A stretch of DNA of 64,000 nt from Candidatus Woesearchaeota archaeon (GCA_014729505.1 WJJS01000001.1:12938-76937), one strand, 5' to 3'; counted from the stretch's first letter, positions 3,929 through 54,179 are shown. Numbers and translations are program-made. The notes: generated by a model not told the origin, from the letters alone.

Positions 3929-6550
3929 TCAGTATTTCCTGAACAGCTTCACGATTTCGCCGAAAATCAAAACACTGGACGCTACAGCAGCAGCAATCAT
4001 CCAATCCATAAATGAAAGCGGAATCGTCTCAAAAAGAGTATTGAAAATACCAAGATGCACACTTGCAATTTGCAAACCAAAACTGAGCAACACCGCACCA
4101 ATCAACCATTTGTTAGACCATAACCCTACCGTAAAAATTGATTTCGTCTCAGAACGCTGATTAAGCACGTTAAACAACTGGAAAAGAACCAAGGTAGTAA
4201 AAGCCATCGTTTGCGCATATGTTTTATTCACCTCAGGCTCGTACCATTCAAACACAAAAAGAGTGCCAGCCATCATCAAAAGGCCAATAAACAACATAAG
4301 ACCTGCCCTGCTCTTGTTAACAATCTTTTCATCAATATCGCGAGGCTTTCGCTCCATAACTCCCGGTTCTTTAGGATCAACACTTAAACTCGTCGCAGGC
4401 AATAAATCAGTGGCAAGATTAATCCACAAAATCTGTCTTGCAGTTAACGGATCAATAAGGCCGAGAAGCGTTGCCACAAAAATAGTCAAAATCTCGCCGA
4501 CATTGCTTGATAACAAGTATATGACAAACTTCTTGATGTTATCATAAATAACGCGACCTTCTTCAACTGCACGAACAATAGTTGCAAAATTATCATCGGC
4601 AAGAATCATATCGCTGGCCTGACGAGAAACATCAGTACCAGTGATACCCATTGCAATGCCAAGATCAGCCTTCTTTAAAGCAGGAGCATCATTAGCACCG
4701 TCACCCGTCATAGCAACAATATGCCTGTTCTTACGCAGTGCATCGACAATATGCAGTTTATCCTCTGGATTAACACGGGCATAAATACTAATCTTTTCAA
4801 CATCACGCGAAAGATTGATAGACTCAAGCTCTACACCCTCAATAGCCCTGCCCTCAAGACCAATCTGTTTACCAATCGCTTTAGCAGTACCGAGATGATC
4901 GCCAGTAATCATCACCACCTTGATACCTGCAGCATTGCACGTCTTAATTGCTTTTTTAACCTCCTCTCGAGGAGGGTCAATCATGCCCTGCAACCCAATA
5001 AAGATCATGCTCTTTTCAATATCATCATGACTCAATTCATCCTTGAACTCCTTATAACAAAAACCAAGAACGCGCAAAGCCTGACTGGTAAATTCATCAT
5101 TTGTTTCAAGAATATGATCCCGATCCTCTTTAGTCAGCCGACGAACCTTTCCATCAACCAACATATGAGTACAAAAACCAAGCACCACTTCAGGAGCGCC
5201 CTTCGTATACGCCGTCTTCTTACCTTCAAAAGTGGAATGAATCGTCGTCATACACTTGCGTTCAGAACTAAAATCGATTTCATCAACGCGCGTATTATCA
5301 GAACGCACCTTGTCAAGATCAATACCTGACTTTGCTGCACTGACCAATAAAGCACCTTCAGTAGGGTCACCGACAATACTATGACGGCCCTGCTCCACAT
5401 CAAGCTGGGCATTATTGTTCAACACTCCTGCACGCAATAACGTATCAAGAGAGGATGTCTCTTTGGAAAAATCACCCTTTGGTTCATAACCAGAACCAGT
5501 TACCTGAACCACCTGTCCATCAACATACAGTTTTTTAACAGTCATCTCGTTATGCGTCAGCGTACCCGTTTTATCGGTACAAATCACCGTACACGCGCCC
5601 AGCGTTTCAACACTTGGAAGCTTGCGCATCAACGCCTTCTTCTTAGCCATGCGCTGCACGCCAAGAGCAAAAGCAATAGTAACCACTGCAGGCAAACCCT
5701 CAGGAATAGCAGCGACTGCAAGGGCAACAGCCTTTTCAAACACTTCAAGAAGATTTTTACCCAACAACACATCAACGCCAATCATCACCATAGCGATCAA
5801 GACCACCGCAGCAGTAAGCTGATATGCCAGTTTCTTGAGATCCTTTTGTATCGGCGTGGGCTCGCTTTTTGTCTTTTTGAGCATAGTTGCAATCTTACCG
5901 ATCTCAGTACGCATGCCAGTAGAAGTGACAACCGCCTTGCCGTGACCGGCAGTAACTGTCGTGCCAGAAAACACCATATTCTTCTGATCACCAATAGACA
6001 AACGATCAGCAATTCTCTTCACATCCTTTTTAACAGGAACAGATTCCCCGGTCAAAGCCGCTTCCTGCGTTTGCACATTCACCGCATCAATAAGACGAGC
6101 ATCTGCAGGCACAATATTACCTGTCTCCAGCACAATAATATCGCCCTTCACCACTTCTTCAGCAGGAATTTCGCGCCGACGACCATCACGAATAACAATG
6201 GCCTTAGGACTCACCATCTTACGCAATGCTTCAATAGATTCCTCGGCCTTATACTCCTGCCAAAAACCAAACAACGCATTAGCAATAACAACAATTGTAA
6301 TAACGTAAAAATCAATAAACTCTTGTAAAAACAAAGAAATACCCATCGCTGCCAAGAGAATCCAGACAAGAGGACTTGTAAACTGATGCAAGAAGATCAC
6401 AAACGGACTTATCTTCTTTTCACGCTCAAGAGCATTTTTACCAAACTTTTGCAAACGCTCCTTAGCCTGAGATTGTGATAATCCTTCCTTAGAAGAAGCA
6501 ACCTTATCAAATACCTTCTCCAAAGGCAGTTGATACCACTCTTTTTCCAT
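3929..6550 (-). CDS. P-type cation-transporting ATPase (P2/Ca2+-type-like)
   Basis: Motifs [24 protein letters not shown] and [21 protein letters not shown] are present. The protein is 873 aa with multiple transmembrane segments. Confidence 0.9.
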
Positions 6551-9894: not shown

Positions 9895-11898
9895 TTATTT
9901 CGAACTTTTGAGATACCAATTCCTCAAACGGACAACCTTATCAACAACAGAAGGATACATATAGAACTGACCATATTTTTTTGCAGTTTTACTCAGCAAC
10001 TTATCAAGCTCAAGCATTTTGTACATCACCTGAATAGCGTCCTTTTTGCGATCGTATCTAAACAATAATTTGACAAGTTCGACGCCATCATCAGGATGTT
10101 TGGTCAACTTGTAAAAAATCTCCGCGTGAGAAACAGCCTTATCAGGATCGCCCTTTTGCGCATACAGTATAGAGATTGCTCGATGATACTGGGCAATCCA
10201 GGGCTTCTTTTTATGAAACTCATCGAGCAACTGCATTGCCTCGTCTATTCTACCCTGCGCATGAAGAATCTCTGAGTGCGCATGAACAAGATCAAACTCG
10301 CGAGTCCAAGAAGGTGCTTTATCAAGCAAAGACAGTCCCTTTTTTGGTTTTCCAACAAACGCGAGCAACACTGCTTCCCACAAAAGAAGAAACTCATTAT
10401 GAGGCGCCCTCTTACGAGCTTGTTGTACCACTCGAAGAGCGCGATCGTGATTACCGACGTGACTTAACGCGTTTATCACATGCTCTTCATATTGAAGATC
10501 CTTCTTGTGATATGGCAATCCCCTCTCAAGATACGCCAAAGCCTTTTTTGCTTTACCGTCACTGCGAGCAATACGACTGCCAGTAAGATAGCCAGTCTGA
10601 TCCTTAGGATACCACTTGATAATTTTGTCAGCTATCGGATACGCTTTGCCAGGCTTACCGAAATGATCGAAATCTTCGAGAAGAACATACAATGCGCGAA
10701 AGTTTCTGGGAAACTTCATAAGGACTTTTTTTGCCAGATCGTAATACGAGGTCCAGTCATTGCATTTTCGCAGACACTCAAGAGCAGAAAGCCAATTATC
10801 CAGGGTAGGAGGTAAGGAAAGAAACACCTTAGCAGCTTCGCGAAACCGGCCGAGCTCACGCAAGCAGGTAGCCTTTGTTTCAAGCAACACTATTGAAGAA
10901 TACTGCTTTAACTTTTTGTTTATCTCCCGCAATTTCTCCCGTTCATTGCCCTGCGTAAACAAGACATGAGGGTACAATGATGGAAGTTTGTCAATCTCAG
11001 AAGCTCTCTTCGCATATTCATGCGCCTTTTTATTCTTGCCGATGGAGAAATACAACGCAGTCAATCGGTTACACACATCAGAATTTTCAGGTTGCAAGAC
11101 TGCAAGTTTTTCATAGTCAGCAATAGCTTTCTTGACTTGATCTGTTACCATAAACAAATCAGCTCGGGCAGTGAGAATGCCTTCATCAGGACCCATCAGA
11201 GATATTGCATGTGTAAGAAACTTCTCCGCTTCACTGAATTTTCCTTCGGCTTTAAGAGAATCCACATACACCACGTAATCATATTCTGCAAATGAAAAAT
11301 TCTCTGCAAACGCTTGAGCAAAAAACTTGTTGGCCTTTTTATGCTCATGATTGTCAAAATACCGGCGTGCAAGATCAAGAAGACTGCGTGCAAGACCAAA
11401 CTTACGATGAATTAACTTCAAGGTCTGCTTATACTTCTTGTCATTTCGAGCATAATAATACAGGTGAGCGAGATCTTCATAATGAGACACTTTAAATGGT
11501 TCGAGCTTGATGACTTTCTTCATCGCGCTAAGAGCTTTAGAACTGTTTGTTTCCCTAAACAACCAATACACACGAAGAGGCCAATACACATTATTTGGTT
11601 GCCTCCTCATATACCTACGCAAAAGCCTTTCTTCACCAACAGCGTCGTGAAGCTCCCTATAGACATCAACTTTACTTTGCATAACATCAATTTCTTCAAG
11701 ACCGCACTCTCTTGCTTTGTCAAGGATTGCCAAAGCCTCCTTTTTCTTTTTGAGCTTAGAGAGTAACTCTGCTTTTCTCTGCAAATACAAAGGATGGCGA
11801 GGATTCTTTTCCAAAGCTCTATTGACGATGCGAAGCTGTTGACTAGTTGGTAAGTACGGATTAACAAACGGGAACACGGAATAGGTACAAGTCTTCAT
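9895..11898 (-). CDS. TPR-repeat protein
   Basis: It contains many 34-aa TPR-like repeats rich in A, L, Y and K. The track ORF extends to 12060, but the N-terminal extension looks non-coding, so the probable start is the MKTCTYSVFPF ATG near 11898. Confidence 0.6.
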   Translation of the reverse strand: MKTCTYSVFPFVNPYLPTSQQLRIVNRALEKNPRHPLYLQRKAELLSKLKKKKEALAILDKARECGLEEIDVMQSKVDVYRELHDAVGEERLLRRYMRRQPNNVYWPLRVYWLFRETNSSKALSAMKKVIKLEPFKVSHYEDLAHLYYYARNDKKYKQTLKLIHRKFGLARSLLDLARRYFDNHEHKKANKFFAQAFAENFSFAEYDYVVYVDSLKAEGKFSEAEKFLTHAISLMGPDEGILTARADLFMVTDQVKKAIADYEKLAVLQPENSDVCNRLTALYFSIGKNKKAHEYAKRASEIDKLPSLYPHVLFTQGNEREKLREINKKLKQYSSIVLLETKATCLRELGRFREAAKVFLSLPPTLDNWLSALECLRKCNDWTSYYDLAKKVLMKFPRNFRALYVLLEDFDHFGKPGKAYPIADKIIKWYPKDQTGYLTGSRIARSDGKAKKALAYLERGLPYHKKDLQYEEHVINALSHVGNHDRALRVVQQARKRAPHNEFLLLWEAVLLAFVGKPKKGLSLLDKAPSWTREFDLVHAHSEILHAQGRIDEAMQLLDEFHKKKPWIAQYHRAISILYAQKGDPDKAVSHAEIFYKLTKHPDDGVELVKLLFRYDRKKDAIQVMYKMLELDKLLSKTAKKYGQFYMYPSVVDKVVRLRNWYLKSSK

Positions 11899-11953
11899 AG
11901 AGTAACACCTAAGTCGAGAAAAGTTTAAATAGTATAAAAACCATACTGTTTTC

Positions 11954-12124
11954 ATGGCCAAATTGACACTACGATGCACTTCATGCAACTGGAAATTCCG
12001 CAGAGTATACGAACCAAAACTGTGTCCTAATTGTGGCAAAGCCACCGTAGAAAAAGACAAACGTCAAGGCGCTTCTGACATTCTGCGAGAACTCGACGAG
12101 ATGCAGTCGGGTTTTGATCGCTAA
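11954..12124 (+). CDS. Small zinc-ribbon protein (CxxC...CxxC), 56 aa
   Basis: The sequence is MAKLTLRCTSCNWKFRRVYEPKLCPNCGKATVEKDKRQ.... It is below the ORF-track size cutoff and was found by manual translation. Confidence 0.45.
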   Translation: MAKLTLRCTSCNWKFRRVYEPKLCPNCGKATVEKDKRQGASDILRELDEMQSGFDR

Positions 12125-16831: not shown

Positions 16832-17517
16832 TTTTTATTCCTCTTTCTTACTTTACGAGTCCTGGTAGTATAAGTTTCTTTCGCTGCTGTCGCTCTACGA
16901 AAAAAACCAGAACCTCGCTCAAGAAGACGACCCCACACGCCACGAGCAGAACCGATCAGTGCTGCACCGATTACTGCAAACAATACAACAGCTGCAGAGG
17001 AAAAGCGACTGATCTCGTTTGCATGAGCAACAGAAGTAATATGAACGATCAAACCAAAAAGGAAGGAAACAAACGAAAAGATCCACGTACAAATGACGAT
17101 CCATCCAATTATTGAAGGCATTTTATCATTTTTAACTACTCCTCGATTTTCGAAGAATACATACGTCCTAAGAAACAGAAAGTAAAGACCTGCAAGGAGA
17201 ATACCATACACCCCGATAATCACTGTAACAGTCAACATTACATAGAGCAAAAAAGCCACATTGATCTGAAAATCCACCACGCCACTAAAAAGAGCGCTTG
17301 CCAGAGTGATATATACCCAGTATCCTAGAAGAAACGCTGCAGTAGCAGCAAAACGTACCGCCCTGGTCTTCAAAGAAATAAGGACTTCATGTTTGCGTTT
17401 TCCGCTGCCAAGCGCTGCAAGAGCGAGCAGAATCACCACACCAATAGAAATGGTGATGCCCTCAATAAAATGTGCGGGCGGCACAGCCACTGAAATGATA
17501 AAATCACTGAATGTCAT
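16828..17517 (-). CDS. Polytopic membrane protein with a basic C-terminal tail, possibly a paralogue of the downstream gene
   Basis: Hydrophobic, with a tail RRATAAKETYTTRTRKVRKRNKK. It overlaps the next gene by 4 nt. Confidence 0.5.
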   Translation of the reverse strand: MTFSDFIISVAVPPAHFIEGITISIGVVILLALAALGSGKRKHEVLISLKTRAVRFAATAAFLLGYWVYITLASALFSGVVDFQINVAFLLYVMLTVTVIIGVYGILLAGLYFLFLRTYVFFENRGVVKNDKMPSIIGWIVICTWIFSFVSFLFGLIVHITSVAHANEISRFSSAAVVLFAVIGAALIGSARGVWGRLLERGSGFFRRATAAKETYTTRTRKVRKRNKK

Positions 17518-17605
17518 AGTCTCTTTTTTATTGCAGGAAAAAGTTCAAAGTTATAAACTTTTCAGCGACAATTTTTTAAAGAATCCGATGAAAAAGCATC
17601 CGTAC

Positions 17606-17640
17606 GGGCCGGTAGCTCAACCTGGTAGAGTGCTCCGTTG
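17606..17640 (+). repeat. Direct repeat: duplicate of tRNA-Ala nt 1-35 (5' segment)
   Basis: GGGCCGGTAGCTCAACCTGGTAGAGTGCTCCGTTG is identical to 17730-17764. Confidence 0.85.
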
Positions 17641-17696
17641 CGATGCTTTCGCCCATCGACAGCGAGGTCCGATCTCACTTGCGTGAGATCCGACAG
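17641..17696 (+). repeat. Conserved ~55-nt hairpin element (copy 1), tRNA-associated
   Basis: CGATGCTTTCGCCCATCGACAGCGAGGTCCGATCTCACTTGCGTGAGATCCGACAG contains a 12-bp hairpin, TCCGATCTCAC/GTGAGATCCGAC. It matches 20053-20108 at about 85% identity. Confidence 0.7.
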
Positions 17697-17729
17697 TTTT
17701 ATGAATAGGTGTTTTTAGTATACGTTTAT

Positions 17730-17803
17730 GGGCCGGTAGCTCAACCTGGTAGAGTGCTCCGTTGGCTTCGGAGAGGCTGCGGGTTCAAATCCCGCTCGGT
17801 CCA
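17730..17803 (+). tRNA. tRNA-Ala (anticodon GGC), no intron
   Basis: Manual fold: acceptor GGGCCGG/TCGGTCC with G3:U70, D-arm GCTC-AACCTGGTA-GAGT, anticodon stem CTCCG/CGGAG with loop TTGGCTT, T-arm GCGGG-TTCAAAT-CCCGC and discriminator A. Confidence 0.85.
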
Positions 17804-17857
17804 TGGGTGGCCTTGACGCCCTTTTTTTGATCAAACTTTTTGTAAAAGTTTGCGGTT

Positions 17858-17879
17858 AGAGGCTGCGGGTTCAAATCCC
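17858..17879 (+). repeat. Partial duplicate of the tRNA-Ala 3' portion (variable arm plus 5' T-arm)
   Basis: AGAGGCTGCGGGTTCAAATCCC matches tRNA-Ala nt 44-65 but lacks the acceptor 3' strand. Confidence 0.7.
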
Positions 17880-18127
17880 TTCAGGCTCATCTTGAAACTG
17901 CTCGCGCAGTTTCGTGTTTTTTCACCTGCGATGAAATGCGGCACTCAACCAACTGCTGAAACCCCTCTCACACCATTCTTCAGACCAGTTCTCGACCACA
18001 CCATGGCCCGAACGGTGCGCTTGCTGCCTATAGTCGTCAACAACACGGTAGTTTTACCGGATCTTATCCTTCTTGTTTTACGATTTGTCCACAAGGTTTA
18101 TCAATGAGAGCGTGACAACACCATATT

Positions 18128-18754
18128 ATGGGGGCGTTACTCTTTGACTTTTGGGGAACATTGCTAGATCACGGCACGTACAGTCCTATTCGACAAACAT
18201 ACAAGATCATGCGACCACGCATGAGATTTGGTGATTTTGTTCCTCGATTCGAACAAGCTTTTATGACCGCCACATTCGAATCACAAGAACAGGCGTTTAA
18301 GGCGGCAGCAGAAGAACTCCACGTACGGCTCAAACCATTCATGGTTGACAAACTTATAGGTTTATGGAACAAAAGCCGTCTTCTCGCACAACCATACCCA
18401 GAAACATTTACTGTTCTTGAAGATCTCAAAAAAGAACACAAACTCGTCCTCTTGTCCAATACAGATTGTTTTGTAGAATCAGTGCTTAATAAATTTGAGA
18501 TAGAAAAATACTTCGATCTTATAGCACTATCATACCAAACCGGACTACTCAAGCAAGACGCGAAATCATTTGCATTAGTAGCAAAAAAACTGAAAATGAA
18601 AAAAAATGATCTCATCATGATTGGTGACAGCATGGAAACAGACATAAACGGAGCGGAACGCGCAGGAGTGCGAGCGATACTTGTAGATCGACGTGATCGA
18701 CGAGCACACGATCCAAAGATTGCAGATCTGACAGGACTCAAGGAGGTACTGTAA
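18128..18754 (+). CDS. HAD-superfamily hydrolase
   Basis: The N-terminus is LLFDFWGTLLD (motif I DxD-like) and the C-terminus is IMIGDSMETDINGAERAGV. Confidence 0.7.
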   Translation: MGALLFDFWGTLLDHGTYSPIRQTYKIMRPRMRFGDFVPRFEQAFMTATFESQEQAFKAAAEELHVRLKPFMVDKLIGLWNKSRLLAQPYPETFTVLEDLKKEHKLVLLSNTDCFVESVLNKFEIEKYFDLIALSYQTGLLKQDAKSFALVAKKLKMKKNDLIMIGDSMETDINGAERAGVRAILVDRRDRRAHDPKIADLTGLKEVL

Positions 18755-19161
18755 TGGACTGTTTGTTTTGCAAGATCGCGAAAAAAGAAATGCCAAGCGA
18801 AGTCCTCTACGAAGACGACGATATTTTTTGCTTCTTAGACATTAGGCCAATCAACAAAGGACACGCACTTATCATACCAAAACAACACCACGAAAACCTC
18901 TTTGATACGCCAGACGACTTGCTCAGCAAACTGATCATTACCGCCAAAAAACTAGGAAAGGTCATCCTGAACACCGTACAAGCTGACGGTCTTAATCTGG
19001 GCATGAACAACAAGCCAGCAGCAGGACAAGTAATTTTTCACACACACTTACATGTCATGCCGCGATTTGAAGATGACGGACATACACACTGGAAAGGAAA
19101 AGAAACAACAAAAACAGAGCGCGAAGCAGTAGCAGAAAAAATCAAAGAACAACTGCACTAG
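18754..19161 (+). CDS. HIT-family (histidine triad) protein
   Basis: CLFCKI at the N-terminus and HTHLHVMPR as the histidine triad. Confidence 0.8.
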   Translation: MDCLFCKIAKKEMPSEVLYEDDDIFCFLDIRPINKGHALIIPKQHHENLFDTPDDLLSKLIITAKKLGKVILNTVQADGLNLGMNNKPAAGQVIFHTHLHVMPRFEDDGHTHWKGKETTKTEREAVAEKIKEQLH

Positions 19162-19257
19162 CAAGAGCGCTATACTCCACATATTTCTTAAGTATACCTG
19201 CAGCTAAATGATAAAAATAGTCTGTGCGTTCTTTTTACTTCCATTCTTTTAAAAGAG

Positions 19258-19542
19258 GTGTTAATCGTGTCCCAAAAACAATTTACAACAGTATCGATCA
19301 TAGTCTTTCTCGTTTTGCTGAGCAGTACAGTACTCGCTATCTGCGATCAAACAATTGGAACATCAACAACGCTCAGTAGCGATATCGTGAACTGCAGCAC
19401 AACAAATGGGGTAACCATAAACTCGTCAAACGTCGTGCTGGATTGTGCAGGTCACACGATAATGAGCAATGGGACAGGTCTGCTCAATATTTACGGTGTG
19501 GAAGTAGAACCGGGATTAACAAATGTGACTATACAAAACTGA
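19258..19542 (+). CDS. Signal-peptide protein fragment, beta-helix-like start; possibly the 5' part of a disrupted surface protein
   Basis: A signal/TM segment is followed by CAGHTIMSNGTGLL, then a stop. Confidence 0.3.
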   Translation: MLIVSQKQFTTVSIIVFLVLLSSTVLAICDQTIGTSTTLSSDIVNCSTTNGVTINSSNVVLDCAGHTIMSNGTGLLNIYGVEVEPGLTNVTIQN

Positions 19543-19687
19543 AACATAAACGGATACTGCAGAACTACGCATTAATGGAGGAATTGTCAATATTAGACAA
19601 GGACGAAGCGTTAACGTAGATCTTGACAATGATAATAAAGCCGATCTGGTCATAACGACAACTAGCGTAGAGTACAGCACACTTGGA

Positions 19688-19936
19688 GTGACACTGAAAA
19701 AGTACGAAAAACCAGAACCGGTCATTACAGGAGAAGCCACGACAGAGGAACCAACAACAGAACCAGAACCTGAGCCGGTTGACGAACCAGTTGTGCAACC
19801 ACAGCCCGAACCTGAAAGCGACGAGCAAGCAGAGCCCGAACCAGAACCGCAACGTTCTGTTTTGCTTTACATCGTCATTGCAGGAGTAGGTTTAGTAGGC
19901 ATTGGCATTGTGGTGTGGTACTTATTCAAAAAATAG
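19688..19936 (+). CDS. PEPEP-linker plus C-terminal TM-anchor fragment; possibly the 3' part of a disrupted surface protein
   Basis: EPTTEPEPEPVDEPVVQPQPEPE is followed by LLYIVIAGVGLVGIGIVVWYLFKK. The frame is open from 19616 and the track start is a GTG. Confidence 0.3.
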   Translation: MTLKKYEKPEPVITGEATTEEPTTEPEPEPVDEPVVQPQPEPESDEQAEPEPEPQRSVLLYIVIAGVGLVGIGIVVWYLFKK

Positions 19937-20031
19937 AAGGCAGGAAAACCCCTGCTCATTTTTACTTTCTTTTTTCTCAAGAGTACAAAAACCTTTAAAA
20001 AAGACTTGTCTTCTCGAATATTCCAGAAGTA

Positions 20032-20046
20032 TGGTGGCGGAGTGGC
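20032..20046 (+). repeat. Direct repeat: duplicate of the tRNA-Met 5' end, including 4 nt of flank
   Basis: TGGTGGCGGAGTGGC is identical to 20132-20146. Confidence 0.8.
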
Positions 20047-20052
20047 ATATTC

Positions 20053-20108
20053 CGATGTTTTCCGCCATCGACACGGAGGTCCGATCTCGCTTGCGCGAGA
20101 TCCGACGG
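20053..20108 (+). repeat. Conserved ~55-nt hairpin element (copy 2), tRNA-associated
   Basis: CGATGTTTTCCGCCATCGACACGGAGGTCCGATCTCGCTTGCGCGAGATCCGACGG. Confidence 0.7.
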
Positions 20109-20135
20109 TAGTCAAGTAACACGAGTATCATTGGT

Positions 20136-20253
20136 GGCGGAGTGGCTTAGCCTGGTTAGAGCACCGCGCTCATAGGTCATACCTTTGAGCACTGAGCTTT
20201 CGAGCTATGACGAAGAAACGCGGGGGTCACGAGTTCAAATCTCGTCTCCGCCA
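20136..20253 (+). tRNA. tRNA-Met (CAT), elongator-like, with a 43-nt intron at 37/38
   Basis: Manual fold: acceptor GGCGGAG/CTCCGCC, D-arm GCTT-AGCCTGGTTA-GAGC, anticodon stem CCGCG with loop CTCATA|intron 20175-20217|A then CGCGG, variable GGGTC, T-arm ACGAG-TTCAAAT-CTCGT and discriminator A. Confidence 0.75.
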
Positions 20254-20396
20254 CTTTTTTATGGTGGGTGAGTGTAAGCGAACCCTCCTTTTTTTTCACA
20301 TTTTTCTCAAAAATTTGGTTTATTTTTTTGTCTTTGCCACTTTTTTTGTGCTGTTGAGCGTTAGCGAGGCGCACTTGTCATTTCACAGTACCATGC

Positions 20397-20759
20397 TCAA
20401 TCCTCAAAGGGATGAGAAAAAAGACGAAGATGCTGCTCAAGTTGGTGAGGATCCCAGATTTCAAGATGCGTAGAAAAAGGAATTATTTGACAGCGATTTG
20501 TCCACGGCCATGTTTCAGGATCGGGGAATCGCAGGTACGGATTGCAGACGACTTCATAGCGTTGCAGCACATCAAGATCAGGTGTTTGTTCAATGAGGTA
20601 TTCTTGATCTTTAGTAACAAGCAAGCCCATAACGAAAGCATCTTCAAGTACGCGGCATAACGTGTTGCGACCGTACCATCGACTGCATTCTTGAGGAAGC
20701 GCCAATTTATTATTACGATACGTGATAATGGGAGATAAGGGTATTGAGCGTCTTCGCAT
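20397..20759 (-). CDS. Hypothetical protein
   Basis: 120-aa ORF. An alternative overlapping frame (20483..20773) exists, so the call is weak. Confidence 0.3.
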   Translation of the reverse strand: MRRRSIPLSPIITYRNNKLALPQECSRWYGRNTLCRVLEDAFVMGLLVTKDQEYLIEQTPDLDVLQRYEVVCNPYLRFPDPETWPWTNRCQIIPFSTHLEIWDPHQLEQHLRLFSHPFED

Positions 20760-20866
20760 GACAATACAGACAAAAAAACGATTTATAAATGCCGCGATAA
20801 AAGGCCATTACAACCTAAACGTTTAAATAGAAAATTTGCCTAATTGGCAAAAAAGGAGGTGAATTC

Positions 20867-21232
20867 ATGGCAAAAAAACCATCAATGTGGAAGCAAGTAG
20901 GTAATTGGGCCTTTATAGGCGGTGTTATCCTTGCAGTAGTGATTGGACTATTTTCTAGTCAAGTCGGCAATCTTGGACCTACACTCACGACAGTACTCGT
21001 CATTTTAGGATTGATCGTAGGATTGCTCAATGTCCAACCAGACGAAGCACTACACTTTTTGGCAGCTGCAGTCTCAATTGTTGTCGTCGCAGAATTTGGC
21101 GGTGCAGGATTTGAGCAAGTACAAACAGTAGGACCTGCTCTATCAGGACTATTTATGTCGCTTAAGACGTTTGTCGTTCCGGCAACAGTCGTTGTGGCAT
21201 TAGCAGCACTCTTTAGTGTAGCACGAGACTAA
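20867..21232 (+). CDS. Small membrane protein, hypothetical
   Basis: 121 aa with 3-4 TM helices. A strong SD-like AGGAGGTG lies 7 nt upstream of the ATG. Confidence 0.55.
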   Translation: MAKKPSMWKQVGNWAFIGGVILAVVIGLFSSQVGNLGPTLTTVLVILGLIVGLLNVQPDEALHFLAAAVSIVVVAEFGGAGFEQVQTVGPALSGLFMSLKTFVVPATVVVALAALFSVARD

Positions 21233-21284
21233 GTCTCGTCTTTTTCTTTTTCTTTTCATAACATTTTTAAGGAGTATATTTGAC

Positions 21285-22355
21285 TTGCAGATCATGGTTT
21301 ATTCGCTAGTCAGACCGCTGCTTTTTCGCATGGACGCAGAAAAAGTACATCATCGCCTCGTCAGGTTAGGAACGATGCTCCAACAAGTTCCCCTCGTCTT
21401 GCCGGTGCTTCGCAGTATCTTCACGTATCAGCATCCCGCACTACACGTACAAGTGGACGGCGTAGCGTATGAAAACCCGATAGGGTTAGCAGCAGGTTTT
21501 GACAAAAACGGCGAAATACCTCGATTTATGAGCAGTTTTGGTTTTGGACACGTAGAAATAGGCTCTGTGACAAGTAAACAACACACAGGCAATCCAAAAC
21601 CGCGAGTGCATCGCGTAATAGAAGAACAAGCATTAGTTATCAATTATGGACTAGCAAATCACGGTGCTGCAACAGTAAAACGACGAATAGCAGCGTATGA
21701 TGAAAAGATGCCTATTGGAATTAGCATCGCAAAGACACCCCGCGTAGGAGGAGAACAAGGGATACGCGATTACGCACAATCATTTAGAGATCTATCCATG
21801 CATGGAACGTATACGACGATAAACATCAGTTGTCCAAATGTGGCAGACGGAGAAACGTATGGAGAGAATCCCCGATTATTGCGATCTTTATTGCAAACAC
21901 TCTCAAAAGAAAAAATCGTCTCACCCGTATATCTCAAACTCAAACCAGATTATTCGCACAAACAAATCGATGACATACTCGAGGTTATCAATTCGTTTCC
22001 GTTTGTAAAAGGAGTAATCATCGGCAATCTCACAAAAGAACGAAAAGGGGCAGTCGCGAAAAGAACAGAGTCGGGCGGTATCAGCGGAAAACCAACTAGA
22101 AACAAAAGCACAGCATTAATACGATACGTCTACAAGAAAACAAATGGTCAACTCACCATTATTGGGTGCGGCGGTATCTTTACTGCCCAAGACGCGTATG
22201 ACAAAATAACATCCGGAGCAAGCATGTTACAACTCATAACGGGCATGATCTATTTAGGACCTAGCACCATAAGAAACATCAATAAAGGGCTTGTTACACT
22301 GCTCGAACAAGACGGATTTAAAAGCATCACCGAAGCAACAGGTTCGCGAGCGTGA
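21285..22355 (+). CDS. pyrD: Dihydroorotate dehydrogenase (quinone), class 2
   Basis: The N-terminal membrane-association helix is followed by GLAAGFDKNGE and GFGHVEIGSVT.... The C-terminus is IIGCGGIFTAQDAYDKITSGAS. Confidence 0.85.
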   Translation: MQIMVYSLVRPLLFRMDAEKVHHRLVRLGTMLQQVPLVLPVLRSIFTYQHPALHVQVDGVAYENPIGLAAGFDKNGEIPRFMSSFGFGHVEIGSVTSKQHTGNPKPRVHRVIEEQALVINYGLANHGAATVKRRIAAYDEKMPIGISIAKTPRVGGEQGIRDYAQSFRDLSMHGTYTTINISCPNVADGETYGENPRLLRSLLQTLSKEKIVSPVYLKLKPDYSHKQIDDILEVINSFPFVKGVIIGNLTKERKGAVAKRTESGGISGKPTRNKSTALIRYVYKKTNGQLTIIGCGGIFTAQDAYDKITSGASMLQLITGMIYLGPSTIRNINKGLVTLLEQDGFKSITEATGSRA

Positions 22356-22413
22356 AAGAAAACCACGTTCAAATCCGTAAACTTCTTAACTGGGGCATTT
22401 TATGTGCATATAT

Positions 22414-22427
22414 GCCGACGTCGCATA
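22414..22427 (+). repeat. Direct repeat: duplicate of tRNA-Ser nt 1-14
   Basis: GCCGACGTCGCATA is also present at 22540 and 22756. Confidence 0.8.
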
Positions 22428-22437
22428 CTCTGCGTAT

Positions 22438-22462
22438 CGATGTTTTCCGCCATCGACACGGA
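22438..22462 (+). repeat. Partial copy (copy 3) of the conserved tRNA-associated element
   Basis: CGATGTTTTCCGCCATCGACACGGA matches the first 25 nt of the element at 20053. Confidence 0.6.
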
Positions 22463-22539
22463 CGCGCGGCATTCGCTATTGCTCAGCCCCGCAAGACACA
22501 AATCTTAAAAGGCAGTTCCTTTGTTACTCACTTATTCTT

Positions 22540-22718
22540 GCCGACGTCGCATAATCTGGTACGCTAAAAAACGCATTAGCGTTTTTGGCGCGCCGAAAAG
22601 CTTTGCTTTTCTCGCGTTGCGCCGGTCTTGAAAACCGGTTCCCTTGGGTGCTCGAAAATCTGCGATTTTCGGCACGTACAAAAGCTGACGCTTTTGTCCG
22701 TATCCCGTTTCAAATCCG
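22540..22718 (+). pseudogene. tRNA-Ser(TGA) pseudogene with two large insertions and a degenerate 3' end
   Basis: GCCGACGTCGCATAATCTGGTA, a 55-nt insertion, TTGCGCCGGTCTTGAAAACCGGTTCCCTTGGGT, a 52-nt insertion, then ATCCCGTTTCAAATCCG. The acceptor 3' strand is missing. Confidence 0.6.
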
Positions 22719-22755
22719 TAAACTTCTTAACTAGTGGCATTTCATGCGCATATAT

Positions 22756-22837
22756 GCCGACGTCGCATAATCTGGTATTGCGCCGGTCTTGAAAACCGGT
22801 TCCCTTGGGTATCCCGGTTCAAATCCGGGCGTCGGCG
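22756..22837 (+). tRNA. tRNA-Ser (TGA), class II with a long variable arm, no intron
   Basis: Manual fold: acceptor GCCGACG/CGTCGGC, anticodon stem CCGGT/ACCGG with loop CTTGAAA, variable arm TTCCCTTGGGTAT, T-arm CCCGG-TTCAAAT-CCGGG and discriminator G. Confidence 0.8.
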
Positions 22838-22891
22838 TTTCTATGACGCGAAAGCGTCATCCCATTTTTGAAGTAGTGATTTGAACCGGGG
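22833..22891 (+). repeat. Left copy of a perfect 59-nt direct repeat (last 5 nt of tRNA-Ser plus 54 nt downstream); att-like
   Basis: CGGCGTTTCTATGACGCGAAAGCGTCATCCCATTTTTGAAGTAGTGATTTGAACCGGGG is identical to 23742-23800. Confidence 0.85.
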
Positions 22892-23068
22892 CCAGTCAAG
22901 CTTTGCTTGACGTTGTCCTGGTTTCAAATCCGGGCGTCGGCGTTGTGGGCGCGTTAGCGCTCTTTTTTGTTGTTGTGATTTGAACCGGGGCCAGTCAAGC
23001 TTTGCTTGACGTTGTCCTGGTTTCAAATCCGGGTGTCGGCGTTGTGGGCGCGTTAGCGCTCTTTTTTT
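22843..23068 (+). repeat. Tandem repeat, ~99 nt x ~2.3. Each unit contains an inverted T-arm-like palindrome and ends with the tRNA-Ser 3' end sequence.
   Basis: The unit is TTGTGGGCGCGTTAGCGCTCTTTTTTGTTGTTGTGATTTGAACCGGGGCCAGTCAAGCTTTGCTTGACGTTGTCCTGGTTTCAAATCCGGG(C/T)GTCGGCG. GGGCGCGTTAGCGCTC followed by a T-run is terminator-like. Confidence 0.8.
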
Positions 23069-23135
23069 GATTGCTGCATCATTTCGAATCTAAACCATAA
23101 CCTTTATAAACTATGGCCACTATAGTAACTATAGT

Positions 23136-23336
23136 ATGCCAACAACTATCCAACTCAGCAAAGAAACCAAGAAGCTAATAAGCACGTTTGGTTCCAAAGA
23201 AGATACTTACGACACGATAATTAGAAGACTGTACAAATTAGCTGTTAAGGAGCAACTGAAAGAATTCTTGCTCTCATCAGAAGGAACAATGCCGATAGAT
23301 GAGGCGATTAAGAAAGCCAAGAAAAAATGGCAATAG
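23136..23336 (+). CDS. Small RHH/antitoxin-like protein (putative)
   Basis: 66 aa, MPTTIQLSKETKKLISTFGSKEDTYDTIIRRLYKL. It overlaps the next ORF by 10 nt. Confidence 0.4.
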   Translation: MPTTIQLSKETKKLISTFGSKEDTYDTIIRRLYKLAVKEQLKEFLLSSEGTMPIDEAIKKAKKKWQ

Positions 23337-23668
23337 TAGAGATTACGAAAACACTCTATGAACAGATAGATCGAAAATTCAAAGGAAAAAGTGTCAAAGT
23401 ATTACAACATTTGAAATCATTAGAAGAATCGCCAAAGAAAGGAAAACTCCTAGGAACCATAGGAGGAATAGTGATTAAAGAAGTAAAGTATGAAGGTTTC
23501 AGATTTTATTTCATCACCGACGGATTCAAACTCAAATATACCTCCTCTGAAGATCTTACCGACTTACTTTTGCGGGTTGTAAGAATGTCAGATAAGAAAC
23601 ATCAGCAACAGACTATCGACGAGATCAAACAGATTCTACTAACCATCGGTGTTGAAGGTTTGACTTGA
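23327..23668 (+). CDS. RelE/ParE-like toxin candidate (putative)
   Basis: KSLEESPKKGKLLGTIGGIVIKEVKYEGFRFYFITDG resembles the RelE/ParE core. This is sequence-pattern judgement only. Confidence 0.35.
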   Translation: MAIVEITKTLYEQIDRKFKGKSVKVLQHLKSLEESPKKGKLLGTIGGIVIKEVKYEGFRFYFITDGFKLKYTSSEDLTDLLLRVVRMSDKKHQQQTIDEIKQILLTIGVEGLT

Positions 23669-23741
23669 TAGCCTTCCTTGGCTTGATGTAATGCAAACCG
23701 CATGCACAGGTAAAAAATAACTCAAAAGAAGCCCAGAACCA

Positions 23742-23800
23742 ACCATACACCGGCGTTTCTATGACGCGAAAGCGTCATCCCATTTTTGAAGTAGTGATTT
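23742..23800 (+). repeat. Right copy of the perfect 59-nt direct repeat
   Basis: Identical to 22833-22891. Confidence 0.85.
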
Positions 23801-23854
23801 GAACCGGGGATCTTTGCTTGGCAGTATGCTGATGAAAATACGGCGTTTCAAGAA

Positions 23855-37465: not shown

Positions 37466-38088
37466 TACGCGTCATCCCCGCAGTCAATGCCACAACAATG
37501 CTGGCTTTACGAAAAAACATCTCAATCGCAGAAACACTCAGTCCACTTATTGACGTCGATATTTGTGATGGAAGATTCGTCGCGCGAAAAACGGTTTCCT
37601 TAACTCAATTACGAGGTCTGACAACAAAAAAGTTGAGCATTGATTATATGGGTCAACATCCAGCACGTGCGTTTGTTCGACTGCCAAAAAACACGTATCG
37701 TTTTGTGTTCCACGTCGAGGTAGCCAATGATATCGATGCTCTTATACGACGCTGTAAAGCACATAAGATCATTGCATCAATAGGATTGAATCCCGAGACT
37801 CCTGTTTCGAGTATCGCAAAGTATCTGGGTAAAGGAGTGCAGGTTCATCTCCTCACAGTACATCCAGGAAAAAGCGGACAAGAACTCATCCCTTCAGTAT
37901 TGCAAAAGGTGCGAAAGATCAAAAAGATACGGGAAGACACAAGGATTGGTATTGACGGAGGAGTAAACCTCAAGACCGCGAAACTGATCAAACGATATCC
38001 GCTCAACTATGTCTCAGCAACGTCAGCAATCTTTGGCGCAAAAGACCCAAAGAACGCGTTTAGGGAACTTAAGAAGGCGCTCAACTAG
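37462..38088 (+). CDS. Ribulose-phosphate 3-epimerase-like TIM-barrel protein
   Basis: IDVDICDGRFV ... GIDGGVNLKTAKLIKRYPLNYVSATSAIFGAKDP follows the Rpe pattern. The exact family is uncertain. Confidence 0.55.
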   Translation: MIRVIPAVNATTMLALRKNISIAETLSPLIDVDICDGRFVARKTVSLTQLRGLTTKKLSIDYMGQHPARAFVRLPKNTYRFVFHVEVANDIDALIRRCKAHKIIASIGLNPETPVSSIAKYLGKGVQVHLLTVHPGKSGQELIPSVLQKVRKIKKIREDTRIGIDGGVNLKTAKLIKRYPLNYVSATSAIFGAKDPKNAFRELKKALN

Positions 38089-38127
38089 ATTTTTTTTCCT
38101 TTTTCGTATATGTGAATGCAATTAACA
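38087..38127 (+). repeat. 41-nt direct repeat (copy 1), a duplicated ferredoxin 3'-end remnant
   Basis: TTTTTCCTTTTTCGTATATGTGAATGCAATTAACAGGAC is identical to 38219-38259. On the - strand it encodes a remnant ...PVNCIHIYEKGKKI*. Confidence 0.75.
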
Positions 38128-38209
38128 GGACGAGCATTCTGCCGCTGTTTTTGCCCAGCGGTTGCAATGCGTGACGCTCGGCTTTGCCTCGATCACGCAG
38201 TTAGAATTT

Positions 38210-38467
38210 CTAGATTCTTTTTTTTCCTTTTTCGTATATGTGAATGCAATTAACAGGACAACACTCTGCGGCGTCCATATTATCTTTGAGATCATCGAGT
38301 TCGAGATGTTCTTCAAGACCGACCTTTTTGGCTCCCTTCAAATCAACTTTGCCATCATCACTTATCGTCCAAAATTCTTCAGCAATAGCAGTACAACTAC
38401 CACAACCAATACATTCAGAACGCTCATGAACAATCCTGAACTTTTTATCTTTGTTTTTCTCAGGCAT
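38210..38467 (-). CDS. 4Fe-4S ferredoxin
   Basis: ECIGCGSCTAI plus AECCPVNC. The protein is 85 aa. Confidence 0.75.
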   Translation of the reverse strand: MPEKNKDKKFRIVHERSECIGCGSCTAIAEEFWTISDDGKVDLKGAKKVGLEEHLELDDLKDNMDAAECCPVNCIHIYEKGKKRI

Positions 38468-40009: not shown

Positions 40010-40324
40010 ATGGGACATACCGTATGGAGCCAACGGATGAATGCAGAGCGCATCATCACAGAACTACTTCGTTACAAGAAAGCATTGCGAAGCGAACAAC
40101 AAGCACTGTTTGACGAATTACTGAAACGATCCATGAATCATCTCGGTACCATAAGTTACGCAAACAGCATGCACACCTGGGCATTACTGCTCTTATCAAT
40201 ACTACTAGAACAAGAACAACGCATAAAGAAACTAGAACATGTGGTTAATAGATACCTATCAAAAAAAGAACAAGATCGTCGTGTGGCTGAAAACGAAAAC
40301 GACGAATATGCATCGAACCTATGA
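40010..40324 (+). CDS. Hypothetical protein; 3' end overlaps the polymerase gene start, so the extent is uncertain
   Basis: 104-aa ORF that overlaps 40239..42794 by 86 nt in another frame. Confidence 0.3.
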   Translation: MGHTVWSQRMNAERIITELLRYKKALRSEQQALFDELLKRSMNHLGTISYANSMHTWALLLLSILLEQEQRIKKLEHVVNRYLSKKEQDRRVAENENDEYASNL

Positions 40325-42882: not shown

Positions 42883-43659
42883 ATGCACAAAGCATTAACG
42901 ATAGTATTGCTAGGAATTCTTCTAGTTGGATGCTCAACAACACTAGACACGTCGTCGACAAATCCGCCAACAGCGCCGCACTCAACTTCAAGTCCTCCAA
43001 CAACACAACACCCCGCAACAGAGAACAATTCACAACACACCACAACACAAAATGATTCACAATATCCGACAACGCAGAACGATTCACAACACACGGCAAC
43101 CAATGACTACGTTGCGGGACGAGAACTCTTCAAACTACAACGGGATTCAGACAGTGCACTGGGACAACGAGTAACAGACTTTTTCCCACTTCCTGCAGGA
43201 GCAGTTCTTGTCGAGACAAGACATTTTGGAGCGCAACAATTCAAAGCAAATCTTGTATCAAAAACAGGAGACATATTTCCTTTAGTCAATGATGAAGGAT
43301 ACATTCTTACCACTACGCTGCACTCTTTTGCGGCAGGCCAGTACCTGCTAGACATGATCATCAATGGCGAAGTTACCTTTATCATACGAACACCGGACAT
43401 AGAAGAAGCAACATCATGGAGCGGAGCCGGCAAGAAGTTCACCCCCTTCTTTACACTTTCAGGAACCAACACCTTTGAGATGTCGTTTCAAGGAAATGGA
43501 TTATACATCGTGTCACTATACAATCAAGCAGGAGAACGCATCGCCGTACTTGCACAAGGCGACACCACAGAAAAAACAAACACTGACGTAACCGTACCAC
43601 AAGGACTCTATCTGTTAGGTATAGAATCAACAGGAGTCTGGGACATACAACTCAAATAA
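42883..43659 (+). CDS. Lipoprotein with a Thr/Gln-rich repeat linker
   Basis: MHKALTIVLLGILLVGCSTT (lipobox LVGC) and repeats TTQNDSQ(Y/H)(P/T)TTQNDSQHTAT. Confidence 0.55.
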   Translation: MHKALTIVLLGILLVGCSTTLDTSSTNPPTAPHSTSSPPTTQHPATENNSQHTTTQNDSQYPTTQNDSQHTATNDYVAGRELFKLQRDSDSALGQRVTDFFPLPAGAVLVETRHFGAQQFKANLVSKTGDIFPLVNDEGYILTTTLHSFAAGQYLLDMIINGEVTFIIRTPDIEEATSWSGAGKKFTPFFTLSGTNTFEMSFQGNGLYIVSLYNQAGERIAVLAQGDTTEKTNTDVTVPQGLYLLGIESTGVWDIQLK

Positions 43660-46024: not shown

Positions 46025-46106
46025 TCCCCGCCCCCGGACTCAGCGTTAACCTGCGGTTAACTGGCTGCAGAAAACACTTCGTGTTTTTGCAGTGAACCAG
46101 GAACCT
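46025..46106 (-). repeat. Partial duplicate of the tRNA-Tyr 3' portion (variable arm to 3' end) with a 50-nt hairpin-rich insertion in the T-loop
   Basis: The minus strand reads AGGTTCCTGGTTCA, then a 50-nt insert, then AGTCCGGGGGCGGGGA. Perfect palindrome TGAACCAGGAACCTGGTTCA is on the plus strand at 46093-46112. Confidence 0.65.
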
Positions 46107-53901: not shown

Positions 53902-54025
53902 GCCCTGGTAGTGTAGTGGCCTATCATGAAGCCCTGTCGAGACGAAAACCGTCGCATAAAGGCTTCGACCCGGGTTCAAAGACGGCGTCGGGTTAACCGA
54001 TCCGCTGAAATTCCCGGCCAGGGCG
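53902..54025 (+). tRNA. tRNA-Asp (GTC) with two introns: 20 nt at 37/38 and 30 nt in the T-loop (59/60)
   Basis: The exons read GCCCTGG TA GTGT AGTGGCCTA TCAT G AAGCC CTGTCG|...|A GGCTT CGAC CCGGG TTCAAA|...|T CCCGG CCAGGGC G. They are near-identical to a typical archaeal tRNA-Asp. Confidence 0.7.
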
Positions 54026-54063: not shown

Positions 54064-54179
54064 GGGCCGGTAGCTCAGCCTGGTAGAGCACCTGACTTTT
54101 ATGAAAGTCAAGGACATCAGGTGGTCGCGAGTTCAAAACGATCCCGCGTATGCGGTTCGTGAACGTCTCGTCCGGCCCA
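54064..54179 (+). tRNA. tRNA-Lys (TTT) with two introns: ~14 nt at 37/38 and ~28 nt in the T-loop (59/60)
   Basis: GGGCCGG TA GCTC AGCCTGGTA GAGC A CCTGA CTTTTA|...|A TCAGG TGGTC GCGAG TTCAAA|...|T CTCGT CCGGCCC A. Confidence 0.65.

Follow-up and report, generated by a model that had tools for sequence, protein, structure and literature searches.

The insert ahead of tRNA-Met and its three relatives

We analyzed a 64-kb stretch of a Candidatus Woesearchaeota archaeon contig (GCA_014729505.1 WJJS01000001.1:12938-76937), hereafter the window, in which a non-coding sequence with a conserved pseudoknot-hairpin fold lies in front of the tRNA-Met gene and recurs at three other gene ends. The contig is part of a metagenome-assembled genome (MAG), and all copy counts and open reading frame (ORF) scans given below refer to this one window. 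The window is archaeal chromosome and encodes glutamyl-tRNA synthetase, the archaeal elongation factors aEF-1alpha and aEF-2, a thermosome subunit, RNA polymerase subunits and a quinone-dependent dihydroorotate dehydrogenase; the last of these is 100% identical to NCBI protein MBD3318311.1 of a Candidatus Woesearchaeota archaeon. Its nearest relatives in the collections searched are distant: EF-1alpha was 73–74% identical to proteins of other DPANN MAGs, and the dihydroorotate dehydrogenase was 56% identical to its nearest relative. The latter is encoded on a Joint Genome Institute (JGI) contig, L112, which shared the same gene order (HAD, HIT, tRNA-Met, small ORF, dehydrogenase, tRNA-Ser, S10, EF-1alpha and EF-2).

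At the tRNA-Met locus, the 15-mer TGGTGGCGGAGTGGC was found exactly at both 20032–20046 and 20132–20146, with a start-to-start distance of 100 nt. As the initial annotation had stated, it comprises 4 nt of the tRNA-Met leader plus tRNA nt 1–11, which agreed with the Rfam tRNA start at 20136. The left repeat, R1(Met), follows immediately on the native promoter (~19990–20031). The right repeat, R2(Met), leads into an intact elongator-type tRNA-Met(CAU) at 20136–20253 (Rfam tRNA, 55 bits; anticodon CAT), which carries a 43-nt intron after position 37 in the anticodon loop. The two repeats bracket an insert of 85 nt (20047–20131), the length first given for it. The insert begins with a 6-nt junction, ATATTC (20047–20052), the first 3 nt of which could lengthen the repeat with one mismatch. 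It continues with the pseudoknot-hairpin core (20053–20108), in which helix S1 pairs 20053–20057 with 20066–20070, helix S2 pairs 20060–20064 with 20074–20078, and a hairpin with a C.C mismatch occupies 20079–20106. An AT-rich tail (20109–20131), unlike the tails of the other copies and unlike the native flank, completes it. The tRNA-Met intron (20173–20215) was also conserved with L112 (~1786–1826) as TGAGCACTGAGCTTTCGAGC.ATGA, and its CTGA and ATGA(C/T) motifs recall box D and box C.

The polarity of the insertion was given by the comparison with L112. There, the tRNA-Met promoter (AAAACCTTTAAAAG...CTTCTCG) stands directly 5′ of the tRNA, whereas its counterpart in the window precedes the fragment copy and not the intact gene (alignment score 34 vs. 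13.8 ± 2.7 for shuffles). Because the orthologous promoter lies 5′ of the fragment, the inserted segment, which now separates promoter and tRNA-Met, consists of the core, the tail and one copy of the repeat; this bears out the proposed insertion at the 5′ end of this gene. L112 also had no insert ahead of tRNA-Ser, where the promoter abuts the tRNA.

The second copy is located at tRNA-Ala. An exact copy of tRNA-Ala nt 1–35, to the first anticodon base (R1(Ala), 17606–17640, 35/35 identity), is followed by the core (17641–17696), which was recovered by pattern searches, alignment and the covariance model. An AT-rich tail (17697–17729) then leads to the intact tRNA-Ala(GGC) at 17730–17803, identified by Rfam and by its sequence. 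The Met and Ala cores, already reported to match, aligned without gaps and were identical at 48 of 56 positions. The difference in the hairpin stem that had been called compensatory-like (TCACTTGCGTGA vs. TCGCTTGCGCGA) was a true A-U to G-C exchange, and six of the eight differences between the two cores made up three compensated pairs.

The third copy, at tRNA-Ser, was present at 22438 as first noted. It had been described as truncated; it is in fact full length (22438–22494): with the Ala and Met copies as its input, an unfiltered covariance model aligned to all of it at 34.5 bits. Its pseudoknot is the same as that of the Met copy, and its hairpin has been rebuilt by compensatory changes: the second hairpin, GCG-C-GGC...GCC-C-CGC, preserves three pairs, the C.C mismatch and a further three pairs, all in register with the GUC-C-GAU...AUC-C-GAC that the other copies have. 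The tRNA-Ser 5′ duplicate ahead of the core, taken to be 14 nt long, is about 25 nt long. This sequence, c1 (22413–22437), is a diverged copy of the tRNA-Ser 5′ end (~nt –1 to 23) with one substitution and one extra base, and it adjoins the core on the left. To the right, a 44-nt tail (22495–22538) is followed by c2 (22539–22561), a second copy of the tRNA-Ser 5′ end. The locus is composite. A larger duplicated unit that includes the promoter and starts with TTCAAATCCG occurs twice, at 22368 and 22709 (22368–22432 vs. 22709–22774, 92% identity). The first of these is a pseudogene of tRNA-Ser that breaks off in the T-loop and has the core between the two 5′-end copies as well as two further ~50-nt double-hairpin inserts; c2 lies within this pseudogene. 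The second unit holds the intact tRNA-Ser (22756–22837). The intact tRNAs of the Ala, Met and Ser loci scored 55–58 bits with Rfam.

The fourth and most diverged copy is not at a tRNA gene, so that the tie to tRNA genes drawn in the initial annotation does not hold for the whole family. It is found at the 3′ end of a ferredoxin gene (Fer4_15; 38210–38467, minus strand), the stop codon of which overlaps that of a plus-strand ribulose-phosphate epimerase gene. R1(Fdx) (38085–38142) duplicates the last ~56 nt of the ferredoxin gene together with CTAG, the stop overlap of the two genes. The core (38143–38200; S1 CGCTG/CAGCG, S2 TTTGC/GCAA) is flush with the end of R1(Fdx) and is followed by a 9-nt tail from 38201 and by R2(Fdx) (38210–38269), the true 3′ end of the intact ferredoxin ORF. 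Because the gene end is duplicated, both the ferredoxin and the epimerase genes are intact. The score of this copy with the two-sequence model (12.7 bits, E 0.17) is by itself at noise level, as unrelated loci reached 12.3 bits. The copy is credible because its start abuts the end of a ~58-nt repeat, because the second repeat follows 9 nt on, and because S1, which was unpaired in the detecting model, covaries (CGCTG...CAGCG vs. CGATG...CATCG elsewhere).

All features of the four inserts described above are given on the plus strand. Thus, four core copies were present in the window. A 29-nt hairpin pattern gave two matches against 0.00 expected from dinucleotide shuffles and a 21-nt pattern of the left half gave three against 0.01, which, with the covariance-model matches, supports a specific element family rather than chance. 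The copies do not stem from recent segmental duplication of one region, since they are flanked by three different tRNA genes and one gene for ferredoxin, and they share no related sequence to the right of the core. A four-sequence covariance model found no further convincing copy in the 64-kb window. One model, R2, gave a 20-bit match to the pseudoknot half of the core only, CGTTGTATTTCTCCATCGGCAAGAAT, at 11026–11057 (minus strand) within a TPR-protein gene (9895–12060); it has neither hairpin nor flanking repeat and is probably a chance match.

Fold, duplications and spacing

The conserved unit of ~56 nt consists of an H-type pseudoknot (S1 and S2, 5 bp each), with connecting segments of 2, 1, and 3 nt, and of a hairpin of ~12 bp with the C.C mismatch, which starts right after S2. 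Pairs were counted on a four-copy MAFFT alignment (S1 columns 1–5/14–18, S2 8–12/22–26, hairpin 27–39/44–56). Standard pairs filled 90.5% of the cells (21 pairs in four copies). Both sides had changed at 10 of the 21 pairs, spread over the three helices, and one-sided change was seen at none. The observed covariation score was reached by 0 of 500 shuffles, and when the 3′ partners were slid by 1–3 columns, only 0–2 such covarying pairs remained. Selection on a structure, which had been proposed from a single stem change, was therefore supported far more broadly, by ten covarying pairs in three helices including the pseudoknot. S1 and S2 interleave and hence form an H-type pseudoknot when present together; it is possible that they are alternative structures, as the covariation backs each helix separately.

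Judged from these sequence changes, some single-stranded form of the core is under selection. The pattern of compensated pairs is not explicable by coding or by double-stranded protein-binding sites. All four copies are sense relative to local transcription, and the folded strand is most likely RNA; wobble pairs offered too few informative cells to tell which strand folds. The idea that the core is a coding remnant, for example of a split integrase, was rejected given the paired changes and the indels in the hairpin loop between copies.

The four inserts share one anatomy. To the left lie the native promoter, or the end of the neighboring gene, and the gene fragment, and to the right lies the complete gene. 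In all four copies the core starts 0–6 nt past the right end of the left repeat, and likeness between copies ends 2–3 nt beyond the hairpin. The tails that follow are AT-rich and of different lengths (~33 nt at Ala, 23 at Met, 44 at Ser, and 9 at ferredoxin), and comparison of the tails with each other found no relation. The foreign piece, core plus tail, thus measures 66–101 nt with the core at its left end. No coding remnant or integrase fragment was found in any of the four inserts. A larger duplication, in which the tails would be diverged native upstream flank, was also considered and rejected (p = 0.55, 0.83, and 0.31).

The duplications differ in length and in identity. They measure 35 nt at tRNA-Ala (35/35 identical), 15 nt at tRNA-Met (15/15), ~25 nt at tRNA-Ser (~23/25, with one substitution and one extra base) and ~58 nt at ferredoxin (~54/59). 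The start-to-start spacing of the repeats is nearly constant in three of the four copies, with 124 nt at Ala (17606/17730), 126 nt at Ser (22413/22539) and 125 nt at ferredoxin (38085/38210), against 100 nt at Met. In the same proportion of copies the duplication and the tail sum to ~69–70 nt, although each of the two lengths varies greatly.

Searches outside the window recovered no relative. Against Rfam 15, a scan of the entire window at gathering score gave only tRNAs. In a looser scan of 17400–23100 (E up to 10), the sole match on an element was Chlorobi-1 on the minus strand, with 14 bits against a gathering score of 50, and the other hits were tRNAs. The exact pattern CCATCGACANNGAGGTCCGA gave 31 matches in JGI metagenome contigs, all unrelated and mostly coding, which was about the chance estimate for an 18-base pattern. 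Two pattern scans of viral contigs gave 0 matches, and no phage or plasmid was matched by blastn. When run on L112 and 37 other archaeal loci (0.5 Mb), covariance models R1 and R2 yielded only noise-level matches.

Neighboring tRNA genes and other features of the window

The tRNA genes of the window are marked by duplications on their 3′ side as well. A 22-nt T-arm repeat lies downstream of tRNA-Ala and continues into a different acceptor strand. The tRNA-Met 3′ end with its terminator has a 74%-identical copy downstream of the gene. The spacing of these 3′-side duplications is 86 nt at both tRNA-Ala (17772–17879) and tRNA-Met (20244–20367); it is also 86 nt at the tRNA-Ser of L011, a locus of an Iainarchaeum MAG (11880–11985), and 94 nt at the tRNA-Met of L112 (1845–1960). 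The Ala and Met 3′ inserts share the module CCTTTTTTT..TCA.A.TTTTT.T.AAAA.TTT..GGTT (p ~3e-4). This module is a T-run plus an AT-hairpin adjoining the displaced outer fragment, the mirror image of the 5′ pseudoknot element. Overall, flank duplications occurred at four of the four tRNAs found by ARAGORN in the window and at 2 of 22 tRNAs in 38 related loci. A nested tRNA cassette within an old tRNA-Ala was rejected as an explanation, because the acceptor strand of the 3′ fragment, CAGGCTC, cannot pair with GGGCCGG, the 5′ end of the upstream fragment.

The L011 tRNA-Ser (11693–11896) showed the same layout as the loci of the window, with a promoter, a 5′ fragment, a ~100-nt insert of three strong hairpins and the intact tRNA. 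One of its hairpins, CCAGCTGA..TCAGCTGG, recurs in the 3′-side insert of the same gene.

Around tRNA-Ser, an insertion of ~0.86 kb (22833–23809) on the 3′ side lies between direct repeats of 59 bp that match perfectly and begin within the final 4 nt of the tRNA. Inside are two 99-nt units in tandem, each of which includes a 3′ fragment of tRNA-Ser, and two small overlapping ORFs (23136–23336, with a weak DUF7557 match, and 23327–23668, with no match) that are possibly a toxin-antitoxin pair. The double-hairpin inserts of the tRNA-Ser pseudogene (22539–22718) are located at 22562–22616 and 22650–22699, and the same two-hairpin design was seen in the T-loop of the 3′ fragments after tRNA-Tyr (46041–46092, minus strand) and after the tRNA-Ser of L112 (~4190–4239). 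About 45 nt downstream of tRNA-Ser, the T-loop and stem of this tRNA recur in inverted form as GATTTGAACYG (22878–22888), which is kept in L112 (~4166–4176); in both the window and L112 a forward 3′ fragment follows it.

Two adjacent plus-strand genes, tRNA-Asp(GTC) (53902–54025) and tRNA-Lys(TTT) (54064–54179), each contain an anticodon-loop intron and a T-loop intron of ~27–30 nt. Both were missed by ARAGORN and by Rfam at gathering score, with a partial match of 25.4 bits for tRNA-Lys. Elsewhere, a plus-strand gene (40239–42794) encodes a protein of 851 aa in which a family-B DNA polymerase (PRK05761-like, below the NCBIfam cut-off) is joined to a VRR-NUC nuclease domain at the C-terminus; beside it lie a SRAP gene and several ORFs that match no family. 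An ORF at 42883–43659, also with no family match, contains degenerate tandem repeats of 27 nt (43004–43100) in which CACAAC is frequent.

Nature and origin of the element

The layout is like that of integration at a tRNA gene, and the element matches no Rfam family. MITEs (miniature inverted-repeat transposable elements), repetitive extragenic palindromes (REPs) and bacterial interspersed mosaic elements (BIMEs), and the palindrome-associated elements of the insertion sequences (IS) IS200/IS605 are small, non-coding, multi-copy, hairpin-forming and intergenic, and their enzyme is encoded elsewhere. The element described here is alike in size and in its hairpin, but it differs in its pseudoknot, its variable right end and its long, variable duplications (15–59 nt). 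Terminal inverted repeats of the MITE kind are absent, as the left ends read CGATG or CGCTG and the AT-rich right ends are not complementary to them, and the target duplications (15, 35, ~25, and ~58 nt) are neither short nor of fixed length. Palindromic elements of the REP-associated tyrosine transposase (RAYT) and IS200/IS605 systems have an imperfect hairpin that is recognized as single-stranded DNA, and they insert without target duplication; here, an imperfect hairpin with a conserved C.C mismatch is present, but a long flanking duplication accompanies every copy and no Y1 transposase was found in the window. Elements of the IS1634/IS1549 type are said, in J Bacteriol of 1998–1999, to be of kilobase size, with a DDE transposase, inverted terminal repeats and variable duplications of tens of bases. 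They resemble the present element in the long variable duplications, whereas it has neither a transposase nor inverted termini.

Split tRNA halves and non-canonical tRNA introns in DPANN and other archaea are covered in two reviews (PMC4033280; PMC4090602). The likeness is that a tRNA 5′ piece is followed by helix-forming non-tRNA sequence, in a genome with multi-intron tRNAs. The difference is that an intact tRNA (Ala, Met or Ser) follows 100–340 nt downstream, so that neither splicing nor trans-joining is called for; the element is not part of the mature tRNA, and no complementary leader of a 3′ half was seen. The core has no reverse-complement partner in the window besides its own hairpin. 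A positional scan for bulge-helix-bulge motifs gave no clear signal, but it also missed its positive control; the element lies upstream of a complete tRNA.

Here, we favor, at about even confidence, the explanation that the core is a new non-autonomous insertion element, the single-strand fold of which is kept by selection, and which is tolerated since the duplication restores a complete gene. Between the Ala and Met cores, 14% of positions differ, while their target duplications are perfect. Because these young duplications are perfect, most of the core divergence would predate insertion and would have arisen in source copies that kept the fold. Divergence of source copies by compensatory changes in turn suggests that the fold is needed for propagation, and it would presumably be the feature recognized by a trans-acting enzyme encoded elsewhere. 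The long target duplication would leave a complete gene on the right and make the insertion harmless, and insertions would survive at gene ends because the duplication keeps the gene intact. At tRNA-Met, tRNA-Ala and the tRNA-Ser pseudogene the element would be transcribed within a 5′ leader of ~110–130 nt and should be cut off by RNase P. The duplication may have formed through staggered breaks 15–59 nt apart followed by fill-in, or through target-primed copying, and imprecise joining would fit both the six surplus bases of the Met junction and the tails of unrelated filler sequence.

Several observations weigh against this explanation. The element has no terminal inverted repeats and its right end is undefined. 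The duplications range from 15 to 59 nt in length, and we know of no ordinary transposase that makes duplications varying to this extent. The insertion-element model does not predict the near-constant spacing of 124–126 nt in three of four copies. Such a fixed total length, which was predicted by none of the models considered, hints at a measured or fixed-size intermediate. At ferredoxin, the differences between R1 and R2 fall within the 14 nt adjoining the element, except for a TTC indel at the far end, a pattern that recombination with a diverged copy would yield more readily than fresh duplication. Alternatively, it could come from selection on the remaining 45 nt, which both genes use. The same genome also carries att-like scars after tRNA-Ala, tRNA-Met, tRNA-Ser and tRNA-Tyr. 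Four copies are known, all in one window, with none in the metagenome, viral, phage, plasmid and related-locus searches; because no copy was found outside the window, the case for mobility is a purely anatomical one. The initial annotation had suggested looking elsewhere for an integrase or recombinase gene that carries the same terminal sequence. None was seen among the ORFs examined across the 64 kb, and Pfam and NCBIfam scans of these ORFs detected no integrase, transposase or reverse transcriptase.

The strongest rival is that the inserts are miniaturized remnants of integrase-type elements like pNOB8 and SSV, whose attachment site (attP) equaled the gene end; they would have integrated and then shrunk to ~100 nt, and the fold would be an RNA or single-stranded DNA module beside attP. 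In our judgment this is unlikely but a serious rival, and several features of the loci agree with it. Direct repeats of the tRNA 5′ terminus (35, 15, and ~25 nt) with a reconstituted intact tRNA downstream and foreign sequence between are the textbook mark of such integration. A precedent is Caldiarchaeum subterraneum, in which a tRNA-Thr 5′ fragment lies upstream of a 1.8-kb recombinase-bearing insert before the tRNA (PMC3293823). The clustering of the ferredoxin R1/R2 differences on the element side also suits this origin. The same loci bear att-like 3′ fragments, in which a block of identity gives way to diverged sequence (tRNA-Ala 17858–17889, tRNA-Met 20330–20367), and the 0.86-kb insertion with its perfect 59-bp repeats follows tRNA-Ser; both speak for remnants and against a new element. 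On the other hand, the inserts described here are 66–101 nt long and free of genes, with no coding remnant or integrase fragment inside the bracketed segments, and no integrase was present among the window ORFs examined. Attachment is not to a single target, as tRNA-Ala, tRNA-Met, tRNA-Ser and the ferredoxin 3′ end were all used. With these four targets, there would have to be four variants of the element with only the 56-nt core in common, and each of them would need to have shed all sequence beyond the hairpin on the right, with likeness ending at the same point. The conserved part is a covarying single-strand fold and not an integrase gene or att arm, and pseudoknot covariation is not expected of double-stranded arm sites.

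The near-constant spacing brings a further possibility to the fore, namely archaeal retroposition of the short interspersed nuclear element (SINE) type, or another insertion system with a length ruler; we think this quite doubtful. SINEs, which are eukaryotic and insert by target-primed reverse transcription, have a structured RNA-like core, variable duplications, heterogeneous junctions and source lineages that keep the fold, and they insert by tRNA-type promoters. To our knowledge, SINE-like elements have not been described in archaea. The inserts agree in their structured core, in their variable duplications (15–59 nt) and heterogeneous junctions, with six extra nucleotides at the Met junction, in their place beside tRNA promoters and, probably, in source copies that kept the fold. 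They differ at the 3′ end, where the tail is neither A-rich nor derived from a partner. The tails show no relation to one another and do not consist of simple repeats, and a partner reverse transcriptase was not found within the window. On such a route, a promoter-less RNA of ~56 nt might be inserted just downstream of strong promoters, for example those of tRNA genes, via an RNA intermediate, and the 124–126-nt spacing at three of four loci would reflect an intermediate of fixed length or a measuring enzyme.

Another proposal is that the core is an RNA module useful to the host, acting as a leader or untranslated region in processing, stability or termination, and copied by recombination with the duplications as by-products. 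The compensatory conservation of the fold would be expected of such a module. All copies are sense and three of them lie in pre-tRNA leaders directly downstream of promoters, and the shared 3′ module of tRNA-Ala and tRNA-Met makes the tRNA flanks look modular. We nevertheless consider it improbable. L112 has no element at tRNA-Met and tRNA-Ser, and the 0.5 Mb of related loci yielded none. Of the copies, one lies within a pseudogene of tRNA-Ser, and one follows a protein gene, downstream of a T-rich stretch. No known RNA family matched, and a useful leader would need no duplicated gene fragment ahead of it.

Templated insertion during repair or replication would start where a fork stalls or DNA breaks at the end of a highly transcribed gene; the template would switch to a structured donor elsewhere and return upstream, leaving a duplication with templated filler. 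tRNA genes are classic fork barriers, and the variable duplications, the unrelated tails and the extra bases at the left junction (ATATTC, 20047–20052) are what such switching would leave. It does not account for the use of the same 56-nt donor four times with its left end flush with the duplication, and the compensatory differences would call for several functional donor genes, none of which was found in the window; this route therefore seems to us distinctly improbable. Chance likeness or an assembly artefact, conceivable because the source is a MAG contig and exact look-ups of window proteins gave no second assembly of the organism, is highly improbable, since the pattern matches far exceed the shuffle expectation, a homologous covarying structure is present at four loci, the repeats are 100–126 nt apart and thus within read length, and all genes involved are intact.

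Fragments of tRNA genes in archaea are usually taken as scars of integrase-bearing viruses or plasmids, and they bear on the origins of split and intron-containing tRNAs. Here, ~100 nt of gene-free foreign sequence lies between fragment and gene, and it recurs at different targets with its fold conserved. Partial tRNA copies and multi-intron tRNAs confound tRNA annotation in these genomes. If the element is mobile, as we infer from the layout of the four loci, it would be a small selfish insertion of a new kind in DPANN archaea, and a source of tRNA 5′ fragments and of long structured pre-tRNA leaders that requires no integrase in cis. Demonstration of an RNA intermediate would make it the first SINE-like element in archaea.

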